Source of the DNA: Marsupella aquatica
Lineage: Eukaryota; Plantae; Marchantiophyta
Reading direction: 5' to 3'
Assembly: GCA_973895155.1 (NCBI GenBank)
Contig: OZ316894.1
Coordinates: 24,116,709-24,180,708 of the forward strand
Length of the DNA stretch: 64,000 nt
Shown: positions 3,077 to 40,535 of the stretch, piece by piece
Layout: each line of letters starts with the position of its first letter
Position numbering within the stretch: position 1 is the first letter of the stretch
Position numbers and translations under genes: made by a program
Notes under the pieces: model-generated
The model's database searches: none
Told to the model about the DNA's origin: nothing
The model's input: only the letters and a program-made list of their open reading frames with translations

Positions 3077-4460
3077 TCATACTGTAATAGGAGGAGGGTC
3101 GACTACAAGTAGAGGGAGGCGAGCTACATAACCAAGGGCTATCTTCCCTTTGGTCCTCTGTCCCTTCAAATACTGTCGACGGAAAAGGTCCTCACGGTAA
3201 CGAATCAAATGAGGCTCACTGGTCTTCCGAATGGGATGTCCATCCGGTCCGATCCAAACAAAGTAATCTGATGGCCATGGAATGTCTGGAGCTGGAAGAG
3301 GGAAAGGTGCTATGACCTTTCTACAATGATAAACCCAACTCCAAACGTCAGGAGTCTCAATTGTGGGTAATCTCAGCTTGTCGATAGGTAGCCATAGAAT
3401 ACTACGAGAAATCAAAACCATGTCGTAAGTGTGTGGAAAAGAAAAAGACTCATGACCAAACATAAGTGGAGGTAAAGGAGGTGCAAGAGGAGTGCGTGCG
3501 TCGATGAGTGACGTAATCATCCTATCAAACTAGGCGGGAAAGACAAAAAGAGGCTCAATGTTGGCAACAGAAGAGACAATAGGAGGCTGAGACATCAAAG
3601 GAGTAGGAGCTATAAATGGTACACTGGGAGGCTCTACAGTCTCAGGCTCAGGGGTAGGAGATGGAGGGTGCTCAGGTGAAAATGTAGGAGGGATAGGGGA
3701 AAGAATGGGATCAGGTAGAGGGGGTGTAGGTGAGGATGGAGGAGAGAGTGAAGGGTCAGCAATAGGTAGCTCTGGCACATCAGCATCCATAGGGTGATCA
3801 GGCTATGGTGAAGGTGCAAGGGGTGAAACATGAGGGGGTGGGACGGTACGAGACTCGGAAAGTAAAGCACGAATACAATCAAGTAACTGTAGAGGGGTAC
3901 AACTCAAGAGTCTAGTGGCCTCATCTACCAAATGCTGGTTGAAACCAGCCACACTAGCTAGTCGCTCAGCATCACCAACAAAATCAGTCCATGACGTGTA
4001 AGAAGTGGAAGCAACAAAAGAGGGAGAAGTCATCCCTGGTAGATCTGGTGCTGTCGTCTGCTCCACTGGAGGGGGTCTCGGAGATGTCGTCGGTGGTGGA
4101 GTCAACTCTCTCGCTAACTCTGGCTGAGGTAGCTCAAAGTGTCTCACTCTCCTCCTCCAATCGCTCAGCTCCACTGGTAATAAGCAGCCTCTCAAAAAGT
4201 AAATGTGCGCCAAGTAGGGTGTCAGATAGGTATCATTGGTAGTAGACAAGACAGCCACCTGCTTGGCGATCACCTCCGAAAGAGCTAAGGCCCAGTTGAT
4301 CCTCCTCTTGCCGGTCCATGATACGATGATAGAGTTGGTCAAGTAAACCATAGCCCTGGTCGGTTTGGTCGGATGAAAGATAGGTACAAGGAATCGGAGT
4401 AGATGAGCTAACTCCCGGTTCCTGCACTGATCAATCTTCCAACCAGACCTCCGGTCCCTG
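3077..4460 (-). pseudogene. Retrotransposon accessory ORF, C-terminal part (Pro-rich, with stops)
   Basis: ..GWKIDQCRNRELAHLLRFLVPIFHPTKPTR..NSIIVSWTGKRRINW resembles, from memory, uncharacterised retroelement-associated proteins of bryophytes and ferns. It is followed by Pro-rich ORFs 3803-4351, 3530-3790 and 3077-3520 separated by stops. Confidence 0.6.
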
Positions 4461-7400
4461 CACTAGAAGAAACCGGCCCTATCTGAGACCCTCCCTTACA
4501 TGACTTACTTGAGACCTTTGGAAATTAGTGACTCCAAGGTTATTGGTGTCATCTTTGTTACACCTTCTCAACTAAGTTTTGGTGAATTTTTGGAGAGTCA
4601 TATCTATAACTATTTGGAGTGTTGCAATTGTAACTTAGTGTAGGCAATTATTTTGAAGTTTTATAAGTGACTCAGCACAATTATAATAGCGCTTTCTGCC
4701 ATATTTATCACCATGGTTGCACATATATAAGAACAATATAACTTTGGCTCTTATTAAATAATAATGCCGACCCACATCCCAAATCCAACCCATACATATA
4801 TACTTTATATGTATGATTGACAAAATGATTATAGGTATATGTACCGGAGGTCGGTGCAATTGCAAGTCGCGCGCCATGATGCAGGCCACTGGTTACTCCA
4901 TCATACAAAGAGAAAGACACACACTGAACCCACTAACATCATTTGGCAGCATTCTGTCTCCAAATATACCCCTTGGCCAATTTCAAATGGTTGCAACTCC
5001 CTTCATCTAGGAATATTGAACAGCCCAATATTAGGGACTCTTTTTGTTAAGGGTACAATGCAATGCCTTTGCCGCAAGACCACTTCTACCTACTCTTCCT
5101 TGTAATGCGTGTTGCCCTCAATTGGCTTCATGAACCCCTTCACCTAATGGACCATGCCACAAGTTTCCACGTGTTACATGGTAATGCCTTTGCCCATTGA
5201 CTGTTTTTCCCAAACCCCTTGTGCCAAAACCCTTGGGAGAAACGACGAGTGCCTTCGCGCGCACAGAGTGTCGGCATTTGGCGAGCGAGAAGGAAGAGCC
5301 GAACATCGTCAGGCTTGGGCCCTAGGTTTCCTGAGTGAATCCTATCGAGCTTCTTTGAGTGTCTTGTCTCCGCTGTGCGCTTGCAGTCAAAGGCTTGGAT
5401 TCTCGCTACTATTGGGAGCTCGGGGTTGGAATGAGGGTTGAGTCATTGGCATTTTGTTGGCAGTGGAAGGAGCTGTGGGTTTAGGAGGCTGCTTATTGCA
5501 AGCACAAAACATTGCAGCGGTGACATTGCTAGGTTTTGCTACTGTGCTGAGTGAGGTTGAGGCTGGGTCCAGAGTTTACAAAGGTTGTCGGGAGGTTTAT
5601 CACGGATGACTGGCGATTGGTGAGGCCTATTTGCATTCATCTCCACTATCATTGGGTACCCGAGATACAACGATCGACCTTCTATACAGAGGCGAGGAAG
5701 TGACGAGAACCTACAACTCTTTGCGGGAATGCGTGGTCTTCTGCTTACCTGATTGCCCTCATGCTTGACTGTAAATACATTAGTAAAGTTTTGCTTTGGC
5801 TCAACTTTGGTCTTTTTTGGCCTTGCGTGACTGCGCTCACTTCTCTCGGTTTCCAGTGTGCAGTTGGCTAAAGACCTGGATGTCATGCTGTGAGCGCAAG
5901 CTGCTAGTAGTTGTCCATAGCTTGGGGAAAGCGGTGGGGACTGAGGCCACAAAGGAGTTTGACCTGCGCTTTTTTTTCTTTGCAGCAAGAGCGAGAGTGA
6001 GACGAGTTGCAAATTGAGTTTCATTGAGCTGCTGCCCTGGGCTTGGCGGAGGTCCTACACTCTTGTGTCGCTCACTTCAGCTGCGGTGGGAGCGGGCTTT
6101 TGGTAGTGACCTGTTCAGTTGCAGTGGGAGCTGACAACTTTGGTGGCTGTGGTGTTGAGCTTCTGAGGAGGGCAAGCAACTGCGTGATGTGCCCTTGAGT
6201 GAATGTCTCTTGGAGGAGCTGCGAAGTGGTGAAAGGGGAAGGAGGTGAGCTCGGGCCTGGAAGCAATGTGCTTCTCCAACATTTTTGCACAATGCAATGC
6301 TGCTCAATCGTTTATCCTTCCTCTAAAGCTGAGTGTGACGCATCGACCTTTGACGGGAGTATCTGCATTACAGTTTGCTACATACGGCTGCTCTCTGTGT
6401 GGCAATCGCCAATAGCTAGCGCAATGGAGGGTTCGACGTCAACTTTGAGTCATTGATCAGTGCACACTACATCGCTCTCCCTTTGCTAAACCCTTTCTTT
6501 TGGCTTGGTTCTTGGTGCCTTTGGCATAGGAGCGACGTTATTGCTAATCAACTCCCGAATCAACTTTGGAGGTGCGGGTTAGAAGGGGTTGGAGAGAGGA
6601 GGTCCAAACCGAGAATGCCCTTCACCGTCAACGGTTTCTACTAGTCCCGGCCATGCAGCTGAAAGTGCGCTTCTTTCAGGTGTCGTAGCATTCTGCCAGC
6701 CGGGTGCTTGGACTGCAGAGAAGAGCAGCCACAGTCATTCAGTTCTTCTCCTAGCTCAGCTGCGCATTGTCAACCATCGAGCGCTGCTGCGCGCTAGCTG
6801 TGAACCCCAAGAGGAGCTGCGACAAGGAGGAGATGCAACCAAGAGGAGATGCGACGAAGAGGAGATGCGACCAAGAGAAGCTGCTGCATCCCACATTGAG
6901 TTGGACATTGAGGTAGGGACGTGAGCTACGCACTTTCAACCATCAAGCAACCACCAAGCTCGGCAGCGCTCTGGGATTTGTTGGCCACAGCAGACAAAGC
7001 GGAAGACAAAGGTGAGTGTTCGTGCACCGTTAGAGTAACCGCAAGTACTCTATTACATGCCTCGTTGTTCTCTATTACATGCCTTGTTCTCCCGCCCACT
7101 GTTTCCTGCGATTTTCTTTCTTCCATAAGAGAATGGTGATTTCTTCTTCTATCAAACAAAACCCCACCCAACCACCACACAAGAACGTGGGGTGCGCGCT
7201 TCTTAATCCTCCTCAAACTGGCCCATTGTTCATTGAAACCCCACATATTACCCACCGGCACCAAGGGTCCAGTCCCAACCCGTCTTCCGCTCCCCACCAT
7301 CTTCACTCTCTCGCGCATCTATCTCCTGAACGGCGTCGCTCTCCCTTAGACGCAGAATGCTCCGTTGTGATATTGCCTCCAACTTTTCTAGTGCAGTCTA

Positions 7401-9007
7401 GGCAATTAGACTGCTTTTGCGAAAACTGCCCTTCTTAAAAGTGAGCAATACTAATAAGCCCCGGGGGTGGAGCGTTTGTTACGATGGCCGTGGACCTACC
7501 GTGGGCTATGGTAGAACACTCTATTGTCTATGATGATTCTGAATCTGCTTGAATTGCGAGTGGATGTGCTTTAAGGCAAACTTGTCGGAGAAATTAGAAT
7601 GGGGGGACGGAGCTGTCAGTGCTTAGGTTGTGGCATTTTTGAGATTGTCAAGAGTAATCTGTGATCTCATTTCTAAATGGTTTGAGCTCCTCTGATGTGC
7701 ATAGGAATCGGGCTGAGGAAAGCTTTTGGGAGCTATCATCGGAACTAGCTTTCGATCTATTTCTGCTACTTTTGAATTGGTACTTGGGAAGGCTTTGTAT
7801 CGTTAAGCACTACAAGATTCACAGGCCAGACCTGCTTGCTAGTATGAGGGGCTTTGAAGGAATGTGTGGCCAGGGCTGATTAAGTATGGATTAATTTTGC
7901 ATTGCCTGAGGTACTGAAACTGCCACCCGCTTTGTTTCAATGCCTTTGATATTAATTGTTAATATCTCAAGAGGGTCGTCAACTAAGCTGAAAGGAGTCA
8001 AAGCTAACTACAAGCTAGCAAATACAGAGAATGCTCCCAAGTCGAGTCAGGAGGAAGTTACTAAAACTAGACCTTCACAACTCTCGAAACTGGAAAGTGA
8101 AATTCAGCGTGAGACACGTAGCTGAAGGCCACAAGGATAACTATATGGCCACGCTGTCCCCCATTCAAGTCCAAAGTCCTCTTCAGATTGTCTGAACTCC
8201 TATTGAATGTATTGAATAATTATTTCATCACAGAAATTTTCAGAACAAACACGGAAGCACCAGGGGGCTGAGGATTGGATATTGAGGCTGAAGACATTGA
8301 GGTCATAAACTAGGTGTGGTTCGGGTGACAATGTTAGCAACTGATGCTTCTTCAGGGGAACTTCCCATGTGCAGTTTATCCACACATGATTGACTTTGGT
8401 TCTTGCTGTTTTTCTTTTGGTGTACTCTTGAGTTTGGTGTCACTCTATCCTTTCCTGTAGCCTCGAAATAGGAACACACCTGCTTAGTGGTCCCCAATCG
8501 CCCAATGATTTATAATGACTGTGTCTAGGTGATGTATGCATTGCGTGTTCATTCCAGAAGAATGAATATGTACACTTTGCACAAACCTGGACAGATTTTG
8601 AATGTTATTTATCTGAGTTTTTGTTTGTGAGCTCTGACTTGGAGCCTTAACATTTGTGTTTCTGTGGGGCTGAGCAGAGTTTGTTCCGTCTAGAAGCTGC
8701 TGTACTAAAGTGATCAGCCTCCGGCTTGGAGGTGAATCTTCAATTTTTTGTGGATCCGAGTGACTTCTGTCCAGCTGAGTTTTGCTTTGTCGGGACGATT
8801 GTGTTTGGCTAAGATGCTAGATTGTGGCTTGTCTTCTTGCTTCCAGCTTGTGTATTTTCAATTAATAGAAGTTGGGAACGAAGTGATAATTGAATTTCCT
8901 TATATTAAGCATCTTCACCTAGAAACTCAATACATAAACTCCAGGATTCCCTCGGGACATAAAATGAGCCAAATTGTCTCAAAATTGGGAACCTGCACCC
9001 GCACTAC

Positions 9008-9350
9008 TCAAACAATTGTGTTGGGCTTGGTGGCCTTGTAAGTCTTCTTTAGCTTTCGCAATGGAGGTTGAATCTTGCAGTACGTCAAGGGGAACTTGAT
9101 CTTTGAATCATGGAACTGCTTGGTACTTTCTCGCTTGCACAGAGAGACAGGGACTGTCGTAGTCTTCATGATCTGGATGCAAGGGAACCAAACTCTATGA
9201 CAAGAAGCCATCTCATCATACATCTGCTCTGCAGCTCCGTTTCTTGTGGTATCACAATATTCCTTGTACATGTTGTGATAACCTGTACGACTCTGATACG
9301 TGGACCCAGATACCGAAGTTCTTAATTGTGGTGGGCTTCTTTTCGAAGAT
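9008..9350 (-). pseudogene. RPL18A: Captured last exon of 60S ribosomal protein L18a (eL20), frameshifted
   Basis: CAG|[16 protein letters not shown], then a frameshift, then [41 protein letters not shown]. This matches plant L18a. The splice acceptor is retained at 9351-9352. Confidence 0.93.
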
Positions 9351-10383
9351 CTGGTAGACACATTATTCAGCATTTGCTAACTTCGAAACTAGAAGGGTAA
9401 CACATTAAACAACAGAGAAACTCACAACATCCTCCTTTGGTCCTTCAGAGTCTGTACTTTGATTCTGAAGTTTGACTGAGTTTTTGTTTACTAAAAGAAT
9501 GTGACTGTGTAAGAGTTCCGTTTGGCAGTGGATTGGTTGAAGCACTTCATGCTAGTGTGTTGTCCACAGCTCTTCAACCAGCTTTCGTCTTCCTTGTCTT
9601 TCACCACTTACGATGACATCAATTCAGCTAAGACCATAGAAGGTTCCAAAGCATCTAACTTGTAAAATCGCATTCTGTTACATCAAGGACTAAGGTGTTG
9701 GGTGCCAAAGGAGACAGCACAACAAACACGCTGAAAAGACTTCAGGACTGGGTTCAACAAGGTAGTGAAGGTGCTTAGAGCCATAGTAAGTATGCATTCT
9801 GTATCTTTCTCTGTTGATGTGAGCTTGTGCATAATGGGAGTTGTAGTTGGCAAGAGTTCCAAATATGAATAGATCCAGAAGTATGTGATCATGTACTTGC
9901 TCTATAAAGTTCTGAAGATATAAGCATTTTCTGTTAGACCAGGCAACTTGGGAGTTGGTAAGTGTCACCTGCATCTGAGGGGCTACACCGGGGCATTAGT
10001 GGAGGTTCACTTGCACAACACGACAACCAGTGAATTTTCTCTCTGCTGCAACCTGCAAGGTGAGACTTTCGGTCTTTCTGGATGAAAAAACAGGAGTTTA
10101 ATATGATTGATATACATGTCCGTCGAGAATATGGGTTTATCACCAAGCTCTTTGTCTTAGGAAACTCATAAACTCAGAATCAAATATGTACTATGCACGT
10201 TTCATGCTATGTGTATACTTTGACCTGTAGTTGGAACCAAGACAATGAGTGGGAACTGATTAGTTTAGGTGGTTGCTGTTGGCGAGGCAAGTCGACCTCC
10301 TGCTCACCTTGCTCATCAAAGGACGTGAATAGAGGACATCACAACGAAAGCAACACTTATGGTGAGGACCCGCAACGCTGAAC

Positions 10384-10806
10384 ATGTGTGACTTGCACGC
10401 AAGGCAGAGATGTTGCACCTTGAGTATGTCAGACTTGGGATCCTTCCAGCCCAGTCTGCATGGTACTTTGAGTACCCTGTTGTTTCCAGGAACAACTACA
10501 GCCGGCCTCTACCTGCTTCAGTACCCTTCCCGACATCCTTGGTATTTGTGTCTTGTACATGACCCGCCACAAATTAGGTGCCAAGGGTGTGTACACAGTT
10601 GCCAATATGACTGTCCTGCCTGTAGGGCTTCTGGCCCAGAATTGGATGACCGTTCTCTTGAATGCCGATTTTTGCACAGAGCACAATGTATCATCTGGAA
10701 CCACTCGCCATCCTGCAGTGTGCCTGGTGATGTCACTTGTCCTGCCCTCCCAGACCCCACCACCGGTGACTTTGGTGTCTACACATGTTTGGATCACATG
10801 CTCTAG
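10384..10806 (+). CDS. Hypothetical Cys/His-rich protein (possible cargo exon, acceptor near 10489)
   Basis: 140-codon ORF with CQGC..C..CPAC and further C/H residues, co-oriented with the other cargo genes. No family recognised. Confidence 0.3.
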   Translation: MCDLHARQRCCTLSMSDLGSFQPSLHGTLSTLLFPGTTTAGLYLLQYPSRHPWYLCLVHDPPQIRCQGCVHSCQYDCPACRASGPELDDRSLECRFLHRAQCIIWNHSPSCSVPGDVTCPALPDPTTGDFGVYTCLDHML

Positions 10807-11421
10807 AGGACCACTTGTCACACCGCATGCACAGACCAGATACCATTGACCTATAGCTTAACACTCTGACTTCAACACAGAGGATATTTACTTAAAATTT
10901 TGATGTATGAGCAATTTTGGGTCCAGGGTTTAGGGTCAACAGTACATAACTTATATCCTATTATGCCTGCACTAAGCAAAATATCCTAATTTAAGAGGCT
11001 AGCAAACTCGCATAAAAGTCTCTATTGAAAGACTGCTTTCATGACTGCTTTAACTTGGTGAACATTGCAACGTTGAATGAATTAATGGGCCATGTGATAA
11101 TATGCAAAATGATTTATGCCTCACTTATTTGTCTCAGCCACTATCATAACCTATTTAGGATGTATAAATTTCAACCCTTATGACACTGCTTCATACCAAT
11201 CCTCTTCGAAGAATGCCTGTTTTACATGTCACGACTATTGTATGTGATTCAAATGCATGAAATGTTGTTGCAGATCTCCTTTGGTGAATCATAGCCACAA
11301 TTAAAATTGAGGTGTTGGTGGAGAAATTGTATTAGGGGATCAGTTTTGTGTGTGGGCTCAACATACCAAAAGTATGTGTGCTCTGCATCCTTGTGTGGCC
11401 ATTCCAATTCATTGCAGTAGC

Positions 11422-11565
11422 AAATGCCTTTGTACCTTAAATGCTAAATATATTTTACTTTCTGTGCAGTCTGCTAAATTGTAGAGTCTATCTAAATGCC
11501 TTTGTACCTTAAATGCTAAATATATTTTACTTTCTGTGCAGTCTGCTAAATTGTAGAGTCTATCT
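11422..11565. repeat. Perfect 72-bp tandem duplication just upstream of the PHD gene
   Basis: aaatgcctttgtaccttaaatgc...gtagagtctatct occurs at 11422 and again at 11494. Each copy contains an acceptor-like tttactttctgtgcag. Confidence 0.95.
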
Positions 11566-11576
11566 CATGCGCAGGC

Positions 11577-12257
11577 ATGGCACGGCCTAAAATTCAAGCC
11601 AAAAAGCGTGTGACAGAGGTGAGAAACACAGGTGTACTTGGGGCAGATGCTACTAACTTCTCTGCAAGTCAGATTTTCCAGAAGGCAGCTCATTGTTGTG
11701 CCATTTGTGACGATGGTGGGGGCCTGGTCATTTGTGAGGGCCCTTGCATGAGGCATTTCCACCTCAACCCGGAGTCTGACCTTGCTGCAGAAAACAACTG
11801 TCCAGGGGTGGGCCTCCCGTCAACACACCAGGGAGACTGGATGTGCACTGATTGTTTGGAGAAGCAGGCTAAGTGTGCACAGTGTGGGAAGTTGGGGTCC
11901 TATGAGGGCTCTGTTGATGCTGCAGCAAATGTTAGGAAATGTCCAGACCGTTTTTGTGTGAGATTTTTCTGTTTTGAGTGTTTGCCTACTCATGCCACAG
12001 CTTGCCCACTTCATAGGTGCAAGGCATGTGGTGAGCATGATGATGACTACTGGACTGACATAGTCCACTGTGCTAGGTGTCCCACTATGTGGCACTATCA
12101 TTGCCTGAAAGATCATCAAGCAGAGGGTTATGCTTGTGACAGAGAAATCTATGATCACTCTGCACATGGTGTTGATCGATGGATATTTTATTGTCATCGC
12201 CATGCCATTGATCCTACCTCGCGCACTCCTGTGAGAGATCACATATCTTGGCTGTGA
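11577..12257 (+). CDS. Stand-alone EDM2-like composite PHD-finger protein (226 aa), transposon cargo
   Basis: CAICDDGG..CEGPCMRHFH..CTDC..CAQCGKLGS..CPLHRCKAC..CARCPTMWHYHCL..IFYCHRHAID..TPVRDHI. This follows the recalled EDM2 PHD region (CAICDNGG..CEGSCLRSFH..CKNLGS..CPLHKC..CRRCPKSYHRKCL..IYCQEHEID..TPVRDHV). The N-terminus is basic and NLS-like. The ORF is intact and intronless. Confidence 0.9.
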   Translation: MARPKIQAKKRVTEVRNTGVLGADATNFSASQIFQKAAHCCAICDDGGGLVICEGPCMRHFHLNPESDLAAENNCPGVGLPSTHQGDWMCTDCLEKQAKCAQCGKLGSYEGSVDAAANVRKCPDRFCVRFFCFECLPTHATACPLHRCKACGEHDDDYWTDIVHCARCPTMWHYHCLKDHQAEGYACDREIYDHSAHGVDRWIFYCHRHAIDPTSRTPVRDHISWL

Positions 12258-12849
12258 AGCTGAACATTGTACATGCACAGTGCACCTGATGTGGATGTAC
12301 TATTTTTTGAGATTGCAGAGATTCCAATTTTGAAAAGGAGTTGGGTAGGCGAGTTTATATAGGCAGCACTTATCTTGTGCTCTGGCGTCAGTGGCTGGGT
12401 ACATGCCTATACAAACTTATCCTTACAAGCCTTCTTGGAAGTATTTAGGCTGAGTGGTCATTTTCATAAACACTTTCATCAGACTGCTAAATTAAAACAG
12501 GACTTCTAAGTTGTAAGCGTATAAATTATCAGGCATGCAATTAATCAAATTGCCCTATAAGTTTGTCATTGAATGTATCCTCCTTTACAACAAAATATGT
12601 ATGTGCCATGACAAGTTGGTTGCACTTCATTTCACCACGGATATGGATTTTGTAGTATATATTCAAACAATGTCCTGCATCCGTGCAGGTGCCTAGTACG
12701 TATTGTTCACATATCCCTTGTACCTATCAAAATCGGACCTGAGCACCAGTGGGCCAGATCAACTCAAAAAGCAGGAATTTTGTTGTCCTTGTATTGTCAG
12801 GTGAACCCATTCTTCCAAAATTCACTGTCATCACGTAGAGTGTGTGTAC

Positions 12850-13722
12850 ATGGAGCCTGGTAAACGTAGAAAGTGTGACCACCCAGCAGTGTTTACAGGG
12901 GTCAGAGCGATTTTGGTCCATGGCCAGCATGGGTTGACCAAAGTGCATTGGCCAACTGTACAGAAACGATTCTCTGAGCTCCATGGCACTGTAGTTCAGG
13001 ACATCACTCCAGAGACTACACATGTTGTTGCAGGGACATGGCTATCAGTGATAAAGAAGTGGTCATGGTCCTACATGAATTCTGCAATTACTAAGCAAGG
13101 CCTAAAAGTAGTTGAGGCCTCTTGGATCACAGATTCCATAGCACATAAGATTGTACAGGATACTGAGCAATATGAGTTGTGGGAGGATGAAGAAGCTTCT
13201 GCATCAGCTTGGGCTGAACAAGAAGTCTGGGAAGCAAAGGCACGGCTTGCTGATCTCCAATATGGACCTGTACTCAACAAAGGACAGAGCTCTACAAGGC
13301 TGAAGTGTATGTTGGCTGAGGAGACGAAGCAACCAACCCCCATTCTGAAAGGGCTGAGCATGGTATTTGTGGAGGCGGGAATTGGAGAGGTTAAGTGCAA
13401 AGTGTACAAGTCCACAGTGCTTGACCTAGGTGGGACAGTGGAGGAGAATATAACAGAGGACACCACTCATGTCATTACTAAGTCATATCCCAAAGCCTGC
13501 CGCAAGTTTGGGAAGGGAGACATTCGCTTTTATGTCATGTCCCATAATGTGTTTGTGGTTTCATATGCTTGGCTTGTGGAATCAGTAGCAGCTGGGAAGC
13601 GTCAAAACCCAATGGACTATGATCTTTTTGAGGCCTGGCCACGGAAGGGTCAGGATCCTTACAGAGAGGACTATGAGACAACAAGTGAGGAATGGGTCAT
13701 TAGCGATTCTGAATCAGAGTGA
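12850..13722 (+). CDS. Double BRCT-domain protein (DNA polymerase lambda-like BRCTs), transposon cargo
   Basis: Two BRCT repeats: FTGV..HGTVVQDITPETTHVV..WITDSI..YEL and LKGL..LGGTVEENITEDTTHVI..WLVESV..YDL. The N-terminus has an NLS-like GKRRK and the tail is acidic. The second repeat (VFVEAG..KFGK..YAWLVESV..GK..N..Y.L) resembles the recalled plant Pol lambda BRCT. Confidence 0.88.
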   Translation: MEPGKRRKCDHPAVFTGVRAILVHGQHGLTKVHWPTVQKRFSELHGTVVQDITPETTHVVAGTWLSVIKKWSWSYMNSAITKQGLKVVEASWITDSIAHKIVQDTEQYELWEDEEASASAWAEQEVWEAKARLADLQYGPVLNKGQSSTRLKCMLAEETKQPTPILKGLSMVFVEAGIGEVKCKVYKSTVLDLGGTVEENITEDTTHVITKSYPKACRKFGKGDIRFYVMSHNVFVVSYAWLVESVAAGKRQNPMDYDLFEAWPRKGQDPYREDYETTSEEWVISDSESE

Positions 13723-14155
13723 GGAGTAGTAGCATCAGTTTGGACACAAGTTTTTTTGTATAAATCAGATCATTGAAATAAATGTGATCTTTGAACTAAT
13801 GTACCTTGTTATGGTTGGTGGCAGTTGGGCTTATTTTACTGTTGGCGGATTGTTGTTTCCTGCTGCCTGGGGGTGTCACTGTAAACGTACATGCAGAGGC
13901 GGTACATTTGAGGACAGCGGAGGAGGTGGTGACACCCTCCAACATTTAGGAATTTTGTGTCATTCACTTGACAATAGGTACACTACTTGCGAACCTGTTT
14001 TTTTCTTTTGGGGTGGTTTAGGGTTTGTGAGAATTTAGTACACGTTATGTTAACTCTTTTGGCAGATACAATCAGGGATATATGGAACACAAATACCACC
14101 ATTAGGCATCCTTGTTCACTGCTGTCCATGACTGCAGAGCTCCCAGCCTGTTACA

Positions 14156-17100
14156 ATGCACCCTAGTCACCACCCTCCCCAGACCCAGCCCAGGGCACAG
14201 GCACTGCCTTTGCATCATCCCACAAGGATATCACGCCATGATAATAAGCTTTGGCAGCGTGAAAGGTTACGAACCAGACTTTCAGGAGCCAGTAGGATGA
14301 GATGTCCTTGTGCAATCTGCCAAGGATCCCGTACCAGGGGTCTGAATGAGGTTTGGCGGCATATCGCGGTTCATGGAAGAGATCCACGACATCGAGTTTG
14401 GAATGATCCTGCAGAGGAAGATTCTTCCGACGAGGAGTGGAGGTTAGAATTTGATGCTGCCAATGCTGCAAGACGGGCAAGTGAGGTTCTGCCTGGTGCA
14501 TTTGAAAATGTTGTAGCTGGTCTCTGTGGGTTGTCAGCTCTCCAACGGGATGGTGCTCAAGCAGCACCACGTGACGAAGGAATTCATGTGGAAGAGATGG
14601 TGAGAGACATCTTCCAAGACTTGGATGCATTTCATGATGGGCTGGACAATGAAGAGGATACGGCTACAGATGCAAGTGTGCCCCCTGTCGAAGAGCCTCT
14701 TGATGAGTTTGAGATAGGGCAGGAAACCCCTGGGCATGATGGGATGTTTGGCTCTCCCCTGCAAATACAGGAAGGCAGGAAGTCTTTGTACCCCGGTAGC
14801 AAATGTTCTAAACTGGGATTTGTCATCATGTTCCTGAACATTTGCGGCAACCACAATGTCCCCAACATTTTGGTTTCTGAGTTGTTGGCATTCTTGCGAA
14901 CAACTGTGCTACCAGATGGTAATATTTTGCCCAAGAACATGTACGAGGCAAAAAGATGCATATCTAATCTTGGATTGAACTATGATTCGATCCATGCCTG
15001 TCCTGATGGGCATGTTCTTTTCAGAAAGGAGTATAAAGAATCGTTGACATGCCCTAAGTGTGGGAAGCACAGGTATCGGAACTCAGGAAAGTCTATGGTT
15101 CCCGCCAAGGTACTTCGTCATTTTCCACTCATTCCCAGACTTCAGCGGATGTTCAGAAGCCGTGCCATCTCGGAGATGATGACTTGGGCAACTGACAAGA
15201 AAAGTGATGATGGGCTACAACGACATGCTGCAGATTCAAGGCAATGGAAACTCATAGATGAGATGTATCCCGAATTTGCTGCTAAGCCGAGGAATGTCAG
15301 ACTTGGGCTGTCATTGGATGGGGTAAACCCATTTGGAGACAAGAACAACAAATTTTCGTGCTGGCCTGTAACTATTTTGAATTATAACCTTCCTCCTTGG
15401 ATGACTACAAAGCGATTTTTTGTTCTGATGGTCCTACTGATACCAGGGCCAGACAGTGCTGTATCTGCCAACATAGATGTGTTTCTGGCTCCCCTAGTGG
15501 AGGAATTGAGAAAGCTTTGGGAGGAAGGAGTTCTCACATATGATGTCCTACAGAGGCTTGGGAGGTTAAACCCATTCATCCTTAGAGCCATTGTCATTCT
15601 GACTATAGCTGACTACCCAGCCCATGGGATGATATCAGGCCAAACAACAAAAGGATATTGTGCTTGTACTATCTGTGGGCGCAATGTCACCAGTGAGTAC
15701 TCCAGAGCCCTGCAGAAAGTGATATACATGGGCCATCGTCGTTTTCTGAAGGCAGATCACCCTTACAGAGAAAGACAGGCACTGATTGCACACTTTGGCA
15801 ATGAGATTGAGCAACGTGGACCCCCGGCACGAGTGACCAAAGAGGAGATCAGGCAGTGGGGAGCACTGAGGGATGACTATATCAAACGAGGGGGCAGGGA
15901 AGATGGAGTGAGTGATCCAATAAAGCGATATGGTGTAAAAAGACTGAGCATATTGGACTTGGAGCTCAAGTACTGGAGGGTAAGCCTCTTGGAGTTGATG
16001 CTAATTGGGATACATGTTTTGGTTCAGAGCATGTGCATTCATTTCGAAGAGAGAGACTAAACTTGAGGCATTTCCTGACGCTTTTGCATTGCAACGATGC
16101 AGGAGTTTGAGCCAAGCAAACATAACATTGATGTTATGCACATTGAAAAGAATATTTGTGAGAGTCTACTCAGATTCTTGTGTGGAGAGAAAGACACTGG
16201 TTCAGTGAGATTGGATCTTGAACAGAGGGGAATGAAACCCCATCTTTGGTTGAGGCCACATGCCCACAGAGCTAATGTGCTCTTGAAGTACCAAGCGCCC
16301 TATGTTCTGACAGACACAGAGTGGGAACTATTTGTGCAGAGGTTGAGTTCTTTAAAGGTTCCTTCAAACTATGGCAGTGCTTTCAAGAAGCATATCATGA
16401 CTAGAAAGCTTGGTAGTATGAAAAGCCATGACTACCATATGTTGATGCAACAGGTGTTGCCTTTATGCCTGAGGGGCCTGTTGCAGAAGCCTGTTCGTAC
16501 TGTGATCATGCGACTCAGTGATATGTTTCGTCGTATTTGTGTGAAGGTTTGGGATGAAACACACTTCCCACAACTGACAGAAGATGTCGCTCAGGTGCTG
16601 TGTGACCTGGAGATTTATTTTCCTCCCGCATTTTTTGATGTCATGACCCACCTACTTGTCCATGTTGTGGAAGAGCTACACCAATTTGGGCCTGTGAGTG
16701 CTCGTTGGTTGTACCCTTTGGAACGGTACATGAAGCTACTCAAAGGTCACGTGAGAACATATTACAAACCTGAAGCAAGCATGGCTAAAGGTTACATCAA
16801 GGATGAGACTCTGGGATTTCTGACCGAATACATAGCACAATATGAGCATGTGAAGACCAGGGTGTGGAATTCTGATGAGGAGGAAGGGGTGATAGGTGAA
16901 GTACTGGAAGGGGCTGCAACCACAAAGAACCTGACCATATCTATGAGAGACTTGGCACATGACTTTGTATTGCACAACACTGTGGTGATGGAACCCTGGA
17001 TACAGTGAGTGCATACATGTGCTATAATCCAGTTCATGAGCTTAAATGTTGTGTTCGTGTGGTTTTCTCCTTCAGCCTGTTCATGTTTACCCAAGCTAAT

Positions 17101-17887
17101 GTTGTGTGGTTGTTCGTTCAGGGAGTATGAGTCATTGAAGGCGGCCCATCCCACTGCAGGAACAACTTTTCCAGGTTTCATGGAGTGGATCAGAGTGGCA
17201 ATTAGAGAGCATCACGAGACCCACCCAGACATGGATGCAGATGTTTACCTACTGTCTAATGCCCCTAGCCTGAAAGTGAAGACTTCCAAACGGATGAGAG
17301 CATATGGGAATCACTTCCGAGTGAAGGATGGTGACAGTGCCTACAGGGTGACGAATGACTGCGGGCTCATCACTGTATTTGAGCAACAGAGCCACAATCA
17401 CGACAGGGCCTGGATGGAGATGGGATATGTGGGAGAATTAGTTGACATATGGGCTCTGGACTATGGGGCGGTGTCCAGTCCTGTGATTCTTATGAAAGGT
17501 TCATGGGTGCGGCAGGATTGGCTTGGTAACAGGGCTACCATGAAGAGAGACAACGACGGTTTCTTGCTGGCCAATTTCAGAGGGAAATTGCCCGAATGGT
17601 CTGAGCCATTTGTGTTTCCTAGTCAGGTGGAGCAAGCTTTCTTCCTGGATGTGGAAGACTCCCCAGGTTGGCGTGTAGTGTGTCATAAACAGGCCAGGCA
17701 ACGTCGGATGGAAGGATCAAACCTTGAGTTTCATTTACACTCTCATAGTGCCTTTGATCGTCGGCGTTCAGACCAAGTGCCTGTAGTTCATGATAGCGGG
17801 GACTTCATTCCTGTGACAAGGGTAGATGCATTTGCTGAAGGAGGCGAATTCAGAGATGCAGATGCCAACAGTGTGCCTGTGCCATGA
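14156..17887 (+). CDS. CACTA TnpD/TNP2 DDE transposase, 3 exons (14156-15979, 16103-17004, 17122-17887), apparently intact
   Basis: CPCAIC zinc motif; IHACPDGHVLF; RNVRLGLSLDGVNPF; YNLPPW; DYPA; DVMHIEKNI; KSHDYH; WLYPLERY; EPFVFPSQVEQAFF. The GT-AG introns preserve the reading frame. Confidence 0.95.
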
Positions 17888-18043
17888 GTAATGTGAATTG
17901 TTTGCATGGACATTAGTGAGGGGAAGGATGTGTAATAAAGTAATTCTGAAGCAACACAGATGTATGGATGGATGCCTGGTGATTGTGGTTGCATTGTGTT
18001 ATACGGGGTGACCATAGATGACATGTTTTTGTGGTCCAGTAGG

Positions 18044-21000
18044 ATGGAACAGAGTGACACAGAGATGTGTGAGTATGAAAGGAAAGCTATGGAACAACGA
18101 GCATACGTGAAAGCCAAAATCGTAGAACTGGATCTGGAAAAGGATGTGGCTGAATTGTAAGGGAACGATTCTCAACTACACCCCTCCGCTGAGTTTGTGT
18201 GACATGAATAGTTCAATGTGGCACTGAAATTGTGACTGTATTCTCATATTGGAATGTCGCAGAGCCACAGCATTTTCAAAGAAACAAAAGGAGTATGCAA
18301 GAAGGGTGACCAGCACTATCTCTGGGCCTGTGCGTCGGAGTGACAGGTTGAGCAAGAAGGTCGTACCTACAATGGCAGAATGTGGAGATGACATTGATGC
18401 TGCACAGGTGGGTGCAGACACTAGACAAGAAGATGCAGATGATGAGTATTTTCCAGAGGAAATGGATGAGGATGGGGGTTATGAAGATGAATACATTGCA
18501 GAGCAGCCCCAAAAGAAACATGTAAGTAGTTTTCCCAACAAGGTTTTGAGTTAAAAACTCTTGTTTAGAGGTTTCATATGTTCAGTACTACACATATGTA
18601 CCTTGCTTAGTTCCTGACATTGTAGTTGGTGATGTGATGCAGCGTCCTGCCAGTTATGTTTTGCCTTCGAAGCCTGTGCATGCACCATACCAGCAGGGGG
18701 GGCTGACCTCTGATCAAGGTTGGCGAGGTGGTAGTAGTGGTAGATCCCAGGCTGGTGCCCAATACTATGGCAGGGGGCAAGCTCTAGGTTATGCCCGTGG
18801 TAGAGGCAGAGCAGGTCCAAACCCACAATCTCGTGGGTATGGACGTCCACCTCAACCATGGGGATGTGAGTATATATCTATATGCCAGTTCTTTGTGAAG
18901 GCATGGCACTCCTGAATTTCAGACTGCATATCAATTTTTGACATTGTTTGGGATGTATTGGATTCAGACAACATGAAATTCTGTCCACCTGCCATTGCAT
19001 GCAGATTCTGCCCAACCTGATTGGGCAAATGCTAGTAATGATCAGTTCCAATGTCCACAAGGACAGACATGGGTTGAACCAGGTTGGGAGGATGGTGGTG
19101 GGTCGTGGAATGAACAAGGTTGGGAAGGTGGTGAAGGTAATTGGCAGGGATATCAAAATTCAGTACCTACAAACGCTGGAAGAGGAGCAGGTAATGTCTG
19201 ATCTTGTCAGCAATGGAAGAACTCATTATATGTGGAGTCCATTCACGTGGGGGGGACTCTGCACATGTATAATGATAGAAAATGTATGTGTGCAGGTTGG
19301 ACAGTCGAACCATCGACTCAAGTATTCACTAATGCCCCTATGCAGATGCAGCACGGAAGGGGGACAGGTATGTCGGTGAATGTTCAGTTGTTTTCCTACA
19401 GTTTGTACTTAGTTTTCAGTACATATGTTTGCACACACATACCTAGAAAGTGACATCATCCGGCCCCTGTACTAGGCTGGACAGGTGGTCCAGGGTCGCA
19501 ACAATTTCAGAGTGCAGTCCCTGCACAGGCATCTACAGGCAGAGCTACAGGTATGTATGTTTGAAGAATTTTTCTTGAAGTAAAGCATTGAATGTTGCCG
19601 TCATCCATTCTGCTATATGTAGTTCTCAAGCATGAATGGCATTGTATTTTCCCAGGTGGCTTCAGAACCCCAGGTAGGGTGAATGAAGGGGTGGCCAATA
19701 CAACGCCCAGTACTACCGAGAGCAGTGCACGAGGGGAGGTGACAAAGAAAGGGAACGTAAAGTTGAATGAGAGACAATGGGTGGATGCTGAGTGTCCTCG
19801 CAAGAACCGATGGCATGCTGATTTGAAAGCTGAAGTATTGCGTTGGTTAGATGTGAGTGTTATTAATTTTAAAAAATAGCATCCAAAAGATTGGAAGACT
19901 GTATGTGAAAATGTTGCTGCCAAATGGAATTATGTGGGCAGTGATGATGGCGTGGACATAGGTTGCCTAGAGAGTACAGCAGGTAAAATTATCAAGCAAG
20001 AGAGGTGGAGAATGCATAAGGCTTGGAAGGAAGGTGGGGAGAAGCCAGATATGCCTCCACCAGCCAGTTGTGATGATAAAGTGTGGGCAAGGTTAGTAGC
20101 TTATTTTGTAACAGATGCTTCAAAAAAGAAGAGTTCACAGATGACCGAGGCCAGGTTGAGTGTTCAGAACCCTAATCTGACAGGAAGGACCGGCACTGCA
20201 CCGACAGCTAAACGTTTGGTAAGAATGAATGGCCTAGCTATGTAATTTATGCTCCACTATGTACTATTTTTTAGTGTAAACCCATACATGTAAACTTTGT
20301 TTTTTAGTGTACGTTCCCTGAATATTGATCGATAACTTGTGTTTGCCATGCATGTGCAGAAAGCCCAATTGGGGCAAAGCCCTTCAAAAGAAGAGTTGAG
20401 GGCTGAAATTGTGAACACCCGGGCTCAAGAGGGTGCATCTGAATCCTCCAAGCATGTAAGTTATATGAGTTCTGATTGGTAATTGAATGACCTGCGTTGA
20501 ATTTTAGGTGTACACTGTATATAACATTGATTGTGCATATATTGCCCAACATTTCATATGGAGTGATTGAACCTATACCCCTGTGTCATGTAGGGAGGTG
20601 GATCTTCACTTACAGAGATAAGTGGTCGTTTGAAGGCTGTCGAAACATGTCTTCCAGAGATCAATGAACGTTTGAATTCATTGACTGACTTGTTCCATGT
20701 GAACTTCAAGACATTAATGGAAGCTGTTGTGTCGGTGAGAGATAAAATTGATTCCAATTCTGCAGGAGTTCCACCATCACCACTTGAGGTGGCAAAGTTG
20801 ATGCACTCTTCTGGCATGCCAACGACATGTAGGCTTGAAGGTAAGGCCTTTACAACTGTGTGGGATATGATTATTAAATGTATAGTTTGAATTGACATTG
20901 TTTGTTGAATGTGTTATTTTCAGTAACATATATTGTGGTTGTTGTGTCCATAGAGAATAAGACAGGTGCTACAGAGAAGAAGTATGAGAACCTGGCAAAT

Positions 21001-21750
21001 ACTCGCTGTAATTTAGAGGCAACAAAGTTGCAGTCTGTACAAGCAACTTGTTTGACAGAGGGCAGTCAACCATGTTTGGATGAGGATGACATTGGCAAGG
21101 GAGTGGATGATATCAATGTTGGGGCAAATGAGGATATCAGCAAGCATGACAATGATACCATTGAGCCAGATTCATGCTATGTAGATCTTGACTCCATTGC
21201 AGAGATAAATGATTTGCAGAATGTATCATTCTCAATGACAGGTGTGCCTCTTGTTGAGATAAATCCAACCAAAGAGTTAGTTGGTATGACACTCCCAGGT
21301 GATGAACCTGCTACTGTGATAGTCCTAACAGAGGAACCTACTGAGCCTAGCTTCACTACTGTGAAGAGAGGAAGCATGCGCACACGAAGCAAGTCTGCTG
21401 GTGGGAGCAGAGCCATGTCAAAGGTTTCATACAAACCTCCAAGAACAGTGCTGGCAGAAAGATCTAAGGTGGAAGTGGGGAAAGCACCTAATGCTGAGGG
21501 ACAAAGTGGCTTGTTAGCTGTTGATGAGAGTGGAACACGAGTAGGATTTGCCAGAGTGCAGGTTGGTTCCACAACGTTCCATGGCAAGAGGATTCCCCCA
21601 GGTTATTCAGTAGTGTTAGTCACATTACTAGTGAAACCTAAAGCTGTCCTTCCCATTCCAAACACAAATGATGATCCTCCTCAAAAGACACTTGGAGATG
21701 CTGCAGGTTCTTTGGTATTATGGCCAAGCAAGTTCATAGAGGATCCATAA
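18044..21750 (+). pseudogene. CACTA TnpA/TNP1-like multi-exon gene with an in-frame nonsense codon at 19877-19879
   Basis: N-terminal EYERK helix; central RW..DL..LD.SV..W.YVG..ERWRMHK..W..LVAYF..S.QMTEAR block; C-terminal FHGKRIPPGYSVV..LPIP..TLGDAAGSLVLWP (TNP1-type). The TAG aligns with a Q in CACTA-3. Exon borders are only partly resolved. Confidence 0.8.
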
Positions 21751-22249
21751 CAATGTCATGCCATTATTTGTTTGTAGTGTGAGTCATGTTATGTAGATTT
21801 TAGATGTCAAGAAGCAGTACAAGAATCATGTCCTCTTGGAGATTCATAGTATCATGCATGTGCTTTCAGTTATCTCATCCTACAGTCATCAATTATGAGT
21901 TCCTGTTTTGTCTAAATTACATTGATCACATTGTAAACTATTCCATTGGAATTCAAATGATCTTCATTTTTTAGCAAGATTGTGATTGTGTTTAATTCTT
22001 ATGAATGTTTTATGTAGGATCTGCTTATATGATGCTTTGTTTCATGTGGATGTCATTCATGCTATGTTCATTTCTTGTATTCAATGTGTTATATTTCTAA
22101 AGTTAGAACATCAGGTTTCTATGTAATGTAATGTCGAGTGCTCTCTCTCCTTATGAACTGTCCCTCTGTGTTCATTAGTCATGGTTATAACTTGCATGTG
22201 AACCTTATTAGTTATAAACATGAGTATATAGAGTCCCAAATGGTTCTGT

Positions 22250-22600
22250 TGTGTGACGCGGGCCAGGGTCTCCATTGGTCTCTCCTGTGACACTAAATAG
22301 TCACACGCTAGTCGTTGTTGAATGCGGGTAAGTCATGTATGTGACTTACGATGTGACTCGCTGAAGTCATATTGCAGTCACGTCGAAACAAGGCTAGACT
22401 CCACAATAAAGTCACAGATCAGTCACAAATGGGTATCAAGCAAGTTGCAAAGCCCAGTATCAATAGTGACTTCCATTTTTTGGTCTCAACTTTTGCAACT
22501 CCAAGGGTCACAGCGTGGGTCAAGTCACGTTGAGTCACAATGAAGTCACATGAGCCAAAATGAGTCATATATTGCGGTCTCAGTTCACCTCGGATTCTTC
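22250..22600. repeat. CACTA-1 right subterminal region rich in short (A/G)GTCA(C/T)/TGAC motifs
   Basis: Dense agtcac, agtcat and gtgact copies in both orientations next to the TIR, typical of CACTA subterminal repeats. Confidence 0.7.
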
Positions 22601-22608
22601 TAGTGCTG

Positions 22609-22908
22609 GTACCTCTAAAATAGGGGACAGTCAAGTCCTCTCCAACAGAGATAAGTCTCTCTCCCTCCTGGCTCAACTGGTACACCTCAAAAACAACAGC
22701 GGTGGTACACACATCAGCTGAACCTCTAGTAGAACTCCGAAAAGTGCCAGCTCGGGGTGGACGAAGAAAATCGGCAATGATGGACCCATGCACCATATCC
22801 CAAGGAAGAAAAAGTAAGGAACTCAAGCCCATCTCTACCAGGTTACCTAGGACCTGTAGGTAAGGTCACCCTGATGGCCTTACTAATTGGTAAGCTTCTG
22901 GTGGCCAT
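22609..22908 (-). pseudogene. Retrotransposon accessory ORF, N-terminal part (separated by CACTA-1)
   Basis: MGLSSLLFLPW..VVFEVYQLSQEGERL..PYFRGT continues in frame into 4460 and below. An upstream ATG at 22908 needs a frameshift to join. Confidence 0.65.
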
Positions 22909-23705
22909 AGCTCAGAAAATCTGAGAAGGCTCTAGAGCTCTCCTCCTAAAAATGGTTAAGCATTGAGGCTCAAGAATGAAATCTCAGGGATCTAAGGTAG
23001 TTGCGCTACTATCAATGGGAGAAGGAATGAACTGAAAAGAGATAGAAATGAAGGAGCTCTGATCAGGCGAAGCTCTCAAAATTGCAATTTCTTCAATTCC
23101 AAGAAATCAGAGAGCATCGATGACCCAATACTCCTCAACATCTCATCAATAGCAGTTCAGAATCGGGGTGAACATTCTCTAGGCAGCTGCACTCCTATAG
23201 CAATTGAAATGAGCTCGAATGGTGGTCTAACAAGTGAGCACTGAGGGTCAAAGCTCGCGCCCTACTGCCGGCCACCTTGGACGTCCCTCAAAGAAAACTG
23301 GAGAAAAAGGTTTGGGCCGGCGCGGACGTCACATTAGGTCGTGGCGGGGTGGACGTCCCGAACGTCCCTACGTGGAGGCCGTCCAAGACGTCCTTGAGTT
23401 TTTCATGCGGGCCAGCGTGGAAGGAGTCGGCCGTCCTTGCAAAAAATGGGTGCCGTCCCGGCCGTCCCTACGAGGAGGCCGTCCAGGCCGTCACCTCATT
23501 TTTGAAGCTCCTTTCAACTTCTTGCCGTCTTGACGTCTAATATGTGAAAACCAGAGTAGCCTTGACATCTTCCAATGGTATCCTTACCCATTTGAGCTTA
23601 TACTAACTTAATTTTGCTTAAAGGGCCTTATAAAAACTTAATAATTTTTAAAAATTTATGGTTTTGATACTTTAACTCTCTTTTTGGAATAATCACCTAA
23701 TTACA

Positions 23706-38000: not shown

Positions 38001-39789
38001 CACACGATTTCGGACCGACCGAGAAGTGTGTCGGAGTTCTTGTTTAGCCCGATCCCGTTTTTTTCTAAGGCAATGCAATGACCGATAAAACTGGCAAAAA
38101 CTCTCCGAAATGCCACTTTCCTCCATTGCATCGCCGCGGGAATGCAGGGAGCGATACGTGCATCAGGTTTTACATTCCATCAGTGAAAAAGTCCGAACTG
38201 CGAGTAACTTGGTCCGAACCGTGTAATCCAGGAACGGCCATGCACTAACCCAGGTAAAGGGGAAACTTAACCATGGTTAAGGGGAAATTAACCATGGTTT
38301 AGAGCGTCTCCTATATAAGAGGAGCGGGCTGCCCATAAAACGTTTGCTTTTGCCAGAGAAAATATCTCCTGACTAAGAGCGAATACCAAACTCCCATCGA
38401 GTCTTACATTCCTCCCAAGCGATTCGACTCTTTCTACCGAAAACCCGATAAATTTATCGGAACAGCCATTCCTGTTCAAGTTCTCCATGTAAGACTAACT
38501 AGTCATTTAGTGTAAAATGTCCAGATCCGAGCGGACTGCGATAAATTTATCGCATTTTGCATTCCTCGATTGCAATCATTTGATCCAGTGTTTAGAGAGG
38601 TGTTGCCTTCATTCCGATAAATTTATCGGAGTCTTCATTCCTTTCATGGAAAGAGGAGTAATTGAGAATCCGATAAATTTATCGGAGTTGTCATTTTTGT
38701 GAAAGATTGAATTCAGGGCTTAGGTGTCTGAGGAAGTCATATTTTCAATTCGAATGCGGAGTGCAATAAACTTATCGCATCCTCCTGTGCGAAAAACTTA
38801 TCGGCGGTGGCCCTTTTATAGTGTCTATTGAGGGGTTGGCCCACGTGTCCACTTTTGATTGGCTGTCACCCTAAACGACAAAATAGCAGAAAAGGGTATA
38901 TTTCTTGGATTTCCAATTTCATTCTCACACGTGCATCGTGGCAAAATTATATAGTTTTGAAATTGAAGCGATAAATTTATCTGATGTTGGTATTGCAAAA
39001 GTGGTTCCTTCATATGGAAGTTGCAATTTGAAATTGAAGCGATAAATTTATCTGATGTTGGTATTGCAAAAGTGGTTCCTTCATATGGAAGTTGCAATTT
39101 TGAAATTGAAGCGATAAATTTATCTGATGTTGGTATTGCGAAGAGTTTTCTTCATATGGATAGGAATTTTGAAATTTAACCGATGAACCGAAGGATCTTA
39201 GTATTGTCGACTTGTATTTTTGTCGCCCGTAGTTTTTGCGATAATTTTATCGGACTGCGCATTGTTGTTGAAAGAATGGCATGTTGACTATGGTCACTTG
39301 CGGAGGTAACTGGTCAATTGCGGAGGTAACTGCAAGGTAACTTTGACGAACCGTGCAGTAATTCTTATCGATTGTGATGTAAAATATTTTTGGTAAATAT
39401 CCAAAAACTGAGAAAACTAAGATTGGGTCGAAGCTTTCATGGCTCAAATCCGGAGTCCGATACAGTTATCGCACTTGGCTCGAAACGTGGATATGGATTT
39501 ATAGATAAGACCTTTCATATATCTTCGGAGAGCGTGAATATGAGGTTGAGGAGAAAGTTTTTCGGATCTAATTGTTCCTTGATAATATGAATGTTTGTTA
39601 GCATGAATTTCATTGGTTTTGATCATTATTAAATTTGCTGTTTCAATCCGAACTCCGATACAAATTATATTATTTCCCCAAAAACATGTTTTTGATGAAA
39701 AAAACTGCCGATTTCGCGAGATTCGACGGAAAATGAAAATACACTTCTCGTTTAGAGGAAATAGTTCTCGTTCGGTCCGAAATCGTGTG
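38001..39789. mobile_element. Non-coding TIR element (1.8 kb), superfamily unassigned
   Basis: 25-bp TIRs: CACACGATTTCGGACCGACCGAGAA (38001) and TTCTCGTTCGGTCCGAAATCGTGTG (ending 39789), one mismatch. No TSD is visible. Confidence 0.85.
38958..39160. repeat. 71-72-bp tandem repeat, about 3 copies
   Basis: aattgaagcgataaatttatctgatgttggtattgc occurs at 38961, 39032 and 39104. Confidence 0.95.
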
Positions 39790-40114: not shown

Positions 40115-40535
40115 AGGGTCAATCTGAAAATGAGAATATATCAGTGTTTACAACAATATATTGTCATTATGGATTTCTCCCATAAATGACTAACTCTAGG
40201 GTCAATCTTGAAATTATGACATATCAATGTTTACAAGAACATACCGTCATTATGTACTTCTCTCATAAATGACTAACTCCAGAGTCAATCTTGAAATTAT
40301 GATATATCAGTGTTTACAAGAACATACCGTCATTATGGACTTCTCTCATAAATGACTAACACCAGAGTCAATCTTGAAATTATGATATATCAGTGTTTAC
40401 AAGAACATACCGTCATTATGGACTTCTCTCATAAATGACTAACTCCAGAGTCAATCTTGAAATTATGATAAATCGGTGTTTACAACAACATACTGTCATG
40501 GACTTATTGCATAAATGACTACTTATAGAGTCATT
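40115..40535. repeat. 83-bp tandem repeat, about 5 copies
   Basis: tcagtgtttacaa-like anchors at 40141, 40224, 40307, 40390 and 40473. Each unit has GTCAT..ATGAC inverted pairs. Confidence 0.95.

Follow-up and report, generated by a model that had tools for sequence, protein, structure and literature searches.

A CACTA transposon in the genome of the liverwort Marsupella aquatica carries what is, to judge from its sequence, an intact and conserved accessory gene of the element, which apparently arose from the PHD module of an EDM2-like plant protein. The gene lies at 11577..12257 on the plus strand of the window (the whole 64,000-nucleotide stretch of DNA that was analysed) and encodes a stand-alone triple-PHD protein of 226 amino acids, which starts with MARPKIQAKKR and ends with TPVRDHISWL. 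In our preferred reading, to which we give a probability of about 40%, the product reads chromatin as an accessory protein kept by selection; it would tether the transposase machinery to nucleosomes and may be gated by its own tail.

The CACTA element and its surroundings

The element occupies 4461-22605 (18,145 bp, 18.1 kb) and has CACTA...TAGTG termini with inverted repeats (left 4461..4500, plus strand; right 22566..22605, minus strand), in which 11 bp are exact and 25 of the 40 positions of the left end match the right one; it is bordered by a CTG target-site duplication (4458..4460 and 22606..22608, plus strand). These limits were confirmed by excision in silico, since removal of the element together with one CTG restored an interrupted minus-strand frame, leaving it open to its terminal stop. 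The restored frame, of about 293 codons, is split into two parts (22606-22832 and 3803-4460), lies between Helitron pieces and has no Pfam match; it is probably another nested element. Helitron ORFs were found at 23701-25020, and inspection by eye suggested a Helitron-like piece at 1598-2059; the CACTA element flanked by them is therefore nested in older repeats. The first-pass annotation had called the gene transposon-encoded, which was borne out, and had taken the nested context to fit insertion into heterochromatin. The nesting is real, but it does not discriminate, because this repeat-rich window also contains a second complete CACTA element (45771-61561, 14-bp terminal inverted repeat, GGT duplication, minus-strand genes) in which no PHD match was found. 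It also follows from this second element that the PHD reader is dispensable for some CACTA elements of the window. Its own cargo ORF (60052-60801, plus strand) encodes a C-terminal RNase H1 N-terminal domain (PF01693, E 3e-15).

Additional repeats were observed in the window. A third CACTA-type left end is present at 37958, for which the window yielded no matching right end. Tandem repeats of 71 bp (38956-39169) and 83 bp (40115-40529) are followed by a degenerate tandem array of units of about 570 bp with internal near-palindromes (40611-45260), and the region 36255-37530, where CpG is very low (0.20), contains two minus-strand ORFs of 241 and 156 aa without a Pfam match; it is possibly an unclassified element.

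The gene order within the PHD-bearing element is an RPL18a fragment on the minus strand, the PHD ORF, a twin-BRCT ORF, TnpD, a TnpA-like gene and a subterminal array. The gene set of CACTA/EnSpm elements was thus recognized: TnpD (14156..17887, plus strand; Transposase_21, DUF4218 and DUF4216) has an open frame of 1163 amino acids over the exons 14156-15979, 16103-17004 and 17122-17887, its two introns being predicted from GT-AG borders and frame, and the multi-exon TnpA-like gene (18044..21750, plus strand, start approximate) matches Transposase_24 with E 5.5e-5, which is below the cut-off, and has in this copy an in-frame TAG at 19877-19879. The subterminal array of AGTCAC and GTCACA words (22290..22570, assigned to neither strand; 10 of each word in 22200-22605) consists of candidate TnpA sites. 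The RPL18a/eL20 piece (9008..9370, end approximate) was captured without introns, is 5'-truncated and frameshifted and runs antisense to the genes of the element; it is a decayed passenger and serves as an internal control within the element. The twin-BRCT ORF (12850..13722, plus strand) is intact, encodes 290 amino acids and contains two BRCT domains; no close atlas cluster was found for it (best 0.88), and its matches to BRCA1 were weak only. Fusion of the PHD and BRCT ORFs was considered and is unlikely, since in full-length homologs of the PHD protein no more than about 10 residues follow the DHISW-type motif.

Integrity, domains and predicted fold of the PHD protein

The frame has no stop, and an equally long ORF with an ATG was found in none of 300 base shuffles of 4461-14100 (9.6 kb), which agrees with the intact 226-aa ORF first reported. 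The absence of introns, claimed at the same time, holds for the coding sequence but not for the 5' leader. A perfect 72-bp tandem duplication (11422..11565, plus strand) with a pyrimidine tract and AG resembles a splice acceptor, and a further acceptor-like CAG ends at 11574, 2 nt upstream of the ATG, which makes a spliced 5' leader likely and leaves room for an N-terminal extension. With another acceptor-like site at 12800, upstream of the BRCT ORF, this suggests that both cargo genes might be expressed from spliced leaders.

Three Pfam models of NSD-type PHD fingers were matched in order, PF23011 (39-93), PF22908 (96-140) and PF23004 (148-180), each scoring below its own gathering cut-off, and all 24 zinc ligands are present (C41-C93, C100-H146 and C148-H209). 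The fingers are encoded at 11697..11855 (PHD1), 11874..12014 (PHD2) and 12018..12254 (PHD3 together with the EDM2-type TPxRDH tail motif), all on the plus strand. The description as a whole composite PHD region ending just after TPVRDH was therefore correct. So was the statement that the other EDM2 domains are absent: Pfam gave PHD models only, with none of the RFD, the acidic regions or the methyltransferase-like ELP domain, while the EDM2-like proteins P0007 and P0020, by contrast, carry a DNMT1-RFD. No DNA-binding domain known to Pfam was found in the ORF either.

AlphaFold2 with an alignment of 105 rows gave a confident model (pLDDT 86.7, pTM 0.80), in which residues 1-4 and 10-22 fall below 50; an earlier model built on 6 sequences reached a pLDDT of 51, too poor for its fold search to be used. 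Among solved structures, PZP and NSD PHD tandems come closest, with middling scores, the best being the NSD2 PHD tandem (Z 5.6, rmsd 2.6, 75 aligned residues). No EDM2 structure was found in PDB searches.

Family and origin

Five homologs, 217-245 aa long, share 37-81% identity with the protein and keep its size, start and end. A profile search at E <=0.001, run against a protein library in which each 50% cluster has a single representative, gave 562 hits, and the best 150 of the 562 were examined. The short family comprises 20 members, 13 of them placed by a tree of 152 rows and 7 short fragments assigned by motif; the family counts do not include the fragments P0067 and P0106 or P0156, a sister on a long branch. 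It forms one clade with support 100/100 (11 rows treed), and the module thus does stand as a unit of its own, as had been proposed. Nine of the 20 sequences are full length and 11 are truncated or frameshifted, P0159 and P0160 being judged from profile coverage. Among the five full-length homologs, four have 24 of the 24 ligands and the fifth 22, whereas identity at the remaining PHD positions drops to 28-29%; ligands kept while other sites diverge are the mark by which protein-level selection on the family is recognized in the sequences.

The scores support an EDM2-type module, as first suggested, over an NSD-type or unrelated PHD. All six members tested had their best host match, at 75-117 bits, among the EDM2-like proteins of liverworts (Calypogeia, Marchantia), compared with 11-66 bits for NSD-type rows. 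The likeness to EDM2-like proteins (Arabidopsis EDM2, Marchantia MARPO_0028s0116 and liverwort paralogs with a C-terminal PHD module, among them MARPO_0005s0286 and Calypogeia CAM6087769) extends to the whole atypical PHD module with the His-Cys insert of PHD1 and the TPxRDH tail motif. NSD1/2/3 share with it the PHD1-3 models, the order of the three fingers, the ligand spacing and the closest solved fold, but they lack TPxRDH, and the PHD ORF lacks SET and PWWP. Compared with the EDM2 layout given in the accessible text of PMC7529245, the ORF is without the RFD, acidic, PGR, methyltransferase-like and proline-rich regions; it differs furthermore in the missing acidic patch before PHD1, a His-to-Cys ligand, a short linker, the A-R-x-K start and its location in a transposon. 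On these sequence features we do not class the product as an EDM2 family member; it has an EDM2-type module only.

The donor was narrowed less closely. In the free tree the short-family clade stands outside the green EDM2-like rows (81/67) on a long branch, the distance to the host proteins being 1.13 changes per site; joining it to the liverwort paralogs with a C-terminal PHD module (lnL +2.7, p-AU 0.61) or to canonical EDM2 (lnL -0.7, p-AU 0.46) did not separate the two hypotheses. Homologs of greater length were sought by single-sequence search, which gave none, and by the profile search, which found 3. Among 11 loci of a metagenome scan none was shown to be a family member: seven are grass-like EDM2 or short EDM2-like genes, three are unrelated PHD genes and one (L009) has no long frame. 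The viral contigs searched gave no family match, and a single bacterial hit was rejected as a chance match in a broken frame. Short stand-alone EDM2-like proteins occur also inside the angiosperm clade (grass-like transcripts), so the loss of the other domains happened more than once. The location in a transposon is established for this element and its near copies, and the 19 other members are known from sequence alone.

Near copies and their variation

The stretch searched for near copies, 58% of which consists of the PHD and BRCT ORFs, was found whole or in part in 10 of 12 sequencing runs, covering three organism codes and three studies, with at least half of its words in five; no RNA run was among those listed. 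In the four runs examined, pieces at a depth in the thousands occur beside rare gapped pieces at depth 13-34, a pattern that fits a multicopy family, although depth does not equal copy number. Contigs in the runs X1 and X5 bridge the spacer between the PHD and BRCT ORFs (12311-12859). None of 12 indels (the best 12 of 24) falls in either ORF; about five of the 12 look independent, and the chance of finding none in the ORFs is about 0.014. Two high-depth pieces within the PHD ORF have 31-32 changed letters and no gap. From the best 40 of 250 variants, 11 are in the PHD ORF, four synonymous and seven non-synonymous at a neutral share of 21%, and none of the 11 hits a ligand position. These variants show no departure from neutrality, and no selection is visible in them.

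Ligand and pocket changes in the short family

The different zinc ligand that had been noticed at first reading proved to be characteristic: where the motif was found, the short family has Cys instead of His in all 13 rows (Cys132 in PHD2 of our protein), compared with 2 of 135 other hits. Cys is an ordinary zinc ligand. The shortening of the linker was likewise seen again, 7 residues following Cys132 compared with about 22-28, counted by eye, in most land-plant EDM2 rows.

The pocket of PHD1 was compared with AIRE, the AIRE positions being assigned by their offset from the first Cys of PHD1. According to the available text of PMC2261226, D297 of AIRE PHD1 binds unmodified H3K4, L308 packs on K4, D312 binds R2 and is required for H3R2 binding, and D297 and A317 stand where K4me3 readers have their aromatic cage. 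The R2 acid (D312 position) is D or E in 19 of the 20 family members and the L308 position is Leu in 19, represented in our protein by the kept R2-site acid and Leu50. At the D297 position 18 of the 20 have His, which departs from an H3K4me0 reader of the AIRE/BHC80 type, and the A317 position is His or Gln in all 20, compared with Ser in 89 of 111 others; in our protein His stands at 39 and 60. An acid within four residues of the first Cys is found in none of the 20 members and in 115 of 120 other hits, and EDM2-like rows have theirs one place further up than D297 (94 of 111). There is also no Trp or Tyr of an H3K4me3-type cage (ING2/BPTF) at the D297 and A317 positions of PHD1, where His and His/Gln occur instead. 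With D312 and L308 kept and D297 and A317 changed, PHD1 therefore probably still accepts an A1-R2 start, with a K4 preference unlike that of EDM2.

The N-terminus

The first-pass annotation had described the start of the protein as NLS-like. The basic start is present and its lysines may act as an NLS, but it is better described as a conserved A-R-x-K motif. Residues 2-10 (11580..11606, plus strand) read A-R-P-K-I-Q-A-K-K, an A-R-x-K-x-x-A-K-K pattern which we take to fit histone H3 at A1, R2, K4, A7 and K9. With the initial Met chosen by a rule preferring [AT]R, R2 is present in 13 of the 19 members that have a Met in range and absent in six, and K4 is present in 10 of those 13; shuffles gave a mean of 3.1 and reached 10 in 0 of 20,000, a significance that is overstated because the rows are kin. 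The A-R-x-K start is spread over three deep branches, a fourth having R-x-K behind an extension, and several members have a lysine at positions 8-9, while residues 11-27, the linker, are only 0-18% identical in four more distant homologs. In liverworts and algae, M-A-R is likewise the start of many EDM2-like host proteins, and thus the A-R part of the motif may be inherited.

Two observations on other proteins belong here. Nine liverwort and algal EDM2-like proteins (P0016, P0018, P0019, P0021, P0022, P0028, P0082, P0093 and P0122) start with M-A-R-[TVA], followed by a W-x-[LV] motif which is absent from the angiosperm EDM2 starts compared; this start is perhaps an unnamed N-terminal domain. 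Short grass-like EDM2-type proteins of 320-390 aa (L004:541-1662, L005, P0035, P0043 and P0061), consisting of the PHD module and tail, nest in the angiosperm EDM2 clade and start with M-A-R-x-K, a possible independent case of the motif.

Discussion

In the reading that we prefer, the product would likely bind the N-terminus of histone H3, through a His/Gln-lined pocket that would favour a K4 state other than that of EDM2, and would tether the TnpA/TnpD machinery to nucleosomes in a particular state. Lacking DNA specificity, such a reader could work for its own element only with the help of a partner; through contact with TnpA or TnpD it would become element-specific, and target capture would be biased. 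After removal of the Met, its own H3-like tail might lie in the PHD1 groove or be methylated by the host, and binding would be gated in this way. BRCT domains point to a cut-and-repair step, and the neighbouring BRCT protein might link the cut ends to repair. Arabidopsis EN/SPM TnpA and TnpD have been modelled as one complex (PMC13547354). There is also an analogy in RAG1, which is steered by the PHD finger of RAG2, a PHD-bearing partner tying a related transposase to histone state. RAG1 is descended from Transib, whose transposase has motifs in common with EnSpm (PMC12730594). The likeness is one of function, and no homology is claimed; RAG2 has a single H3K4me3-type finger with an aromatic cage, which PHD1 of our protein lacks.

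The alternative that survives best, possible though doubtful, also takes the gene as selected cargo, which would loosen silencing as a decoy: it might shield the H3 tails at the element, offer its H3-like tail to host H3K9/K4 writers or readers, or compete with host EDM2. The conserved A-R-x-K start with lysines at 8-9 would suit such a role, as would a reader module without effector domains. There are also precedents for anti-silencing by proteins that elements encode: VANC of VANDAL MULEs (PMC5735166) and Spm TnpA, under which elements are activated with H3K9me still in place (bioRxiv 10.64898/2026.08.24.746577). Together with other accessory proteins of host origin, such as the MAIN-related VANC and NDX-B in EN/SPM, they represent chromatin helpers that elements have recruited from host regulators. 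However, VANC and TnpA bind DNA motifs, according to the accessible parts of these sources, and the product studied here, whose anti-silencing role is putative, has no sequence-specific DNA-binding part and would act genome-wide unless tethered; broad anti-silencing is moreover said to be rare in plants in the available text of PMC12973397. Nor is the element set apart by its CG/CHG decay: CpG is depleted as in its neighbours (0.39 vs 0.44), and CAG depletion is close to that of the PHD-less CACTA (0.90 vs 0.88).

A more elaborate form of the tethering model is rather unlikely as a whole. Here the protein would be a self-gating chromatin adaptor, whose H3-mimic tail fills the re-lined PHD pocket until nucleosomes displace it or host writers modify it, and which together with the twin-BRCT protein would form a RAG2-like kit sensing chromatin state for the transposase.

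It is unlikely that a longer protein of the element has the ORF as its last exon, or that the family consists mainly of host genes with one captured copy. The CAG 2 nt before the ATG does permit an in-frame upstream exon, and short host-type EDM2-like proteins exist (the grass-like transcripts and the liverwort paralogs), but the M-A-R start is conserved across distant members, no long protein stands inside the short-family clade among the 152 rows treed, and the seven members looked up all come from unannotated Logan/JGI assemblies, and many members of the family are broken, as multicopy element genes would be.

Marginally less probable is a neutral passenger, an EDM2-like fragment that was captured and spread with a successful element and has no present function. 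The decayed RPL18a fragment in the same element is such a passenger, 11 of the 20 family sequences are broken or partial, the variants of the near copies look neutral, and capture by Pack-CACTA elements is described as common (PMC13317346, in part). Against this, homologs at 37-81% identity have preserved the ligands as well as the size, start and end of the protein, the family has fixed changes of its own, a long branch (1.13 changes per site) parts it from the host proteins, and the ORF has no indel among the best 12 of 24.

The least probable reading is the mechanism first proposed, in which a mini-EDM2 reads H3K9me2 and recruits AIPP1/ASI1 so that a long spliced transcript of the element is read through its own heterochromatin: its EDM2 ancestry, the acceptor-like sites before the cargo ORFs, which suggest long spliced transcripts, and the distal polyadenylation favoured by the AAE complex (PMC7472560) speak for it, but it is weakened, and less likely than the decoy, because all other EDM2 domains are missing and the pocket is changed (acid before PHD1 lost and A317 position His/Gln in all 20), and in rice only the ASI1-AIPP1 pair interacted in one study (PMC10106862), though OsEDM2 co-purified in another (PMC9292364), as far as the accessible texts of the three sources go. 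Bryophytes differ by lineage in the marks on their transposable elements, with H3K27me3 on many elements in Marchantia and H3K9me2 in Physcomitrium (available text of bioRxiv 2022.10.24.513474).

PHD readers carried as transposon accessories are already known from CR1 non-LTR elements, Rehavkus MULEs, Chlamys PLEs and Chlamydomonas elements (PMC8557442). According to the parts available, the Chlamys fingers sit in a core protein and most MULE PHD rows in the transposase, while here the module is a separate gene, triple, EDM2-type and in a CACTA element. In the accessible part of Table S6 of a survey of 1007 plant genomes (PMC12973397), PHD appears in MULE clusters only and in none of 775 CACTA clusters, and no NSD-type PHD model appears at all. 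We found no title or abstract reporting a CACTA-borne EDM2-type PHD gene in the full-text literature searched, Repbase, most subscription papers and bioRxiv supplements lying outside that scope. PHD cargo in transposons is thus known, and for what appears from its sequence to be an EDM2-type triple-PHD gene in a CACTA element no report was found.

Beyond TnpA, the target choice of CACTA elements and their resistance to silencing are poorly known. EDM2 lets plants tolerate transposons inside genes; if the element keeps and re-tunes the reader of EDM2, it would exemplify directly how a transposon can appropriate a chromatin sensor of its host. With 226 amino acids and a confidently predicted fold, the protein lends itself readily to testing, and as a natural variant it could be used to map the binding of the EDM2 PHD fingers. 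If its H3-like tail gates the finger, a plant DNA transposon would join the short list of histone mimics.
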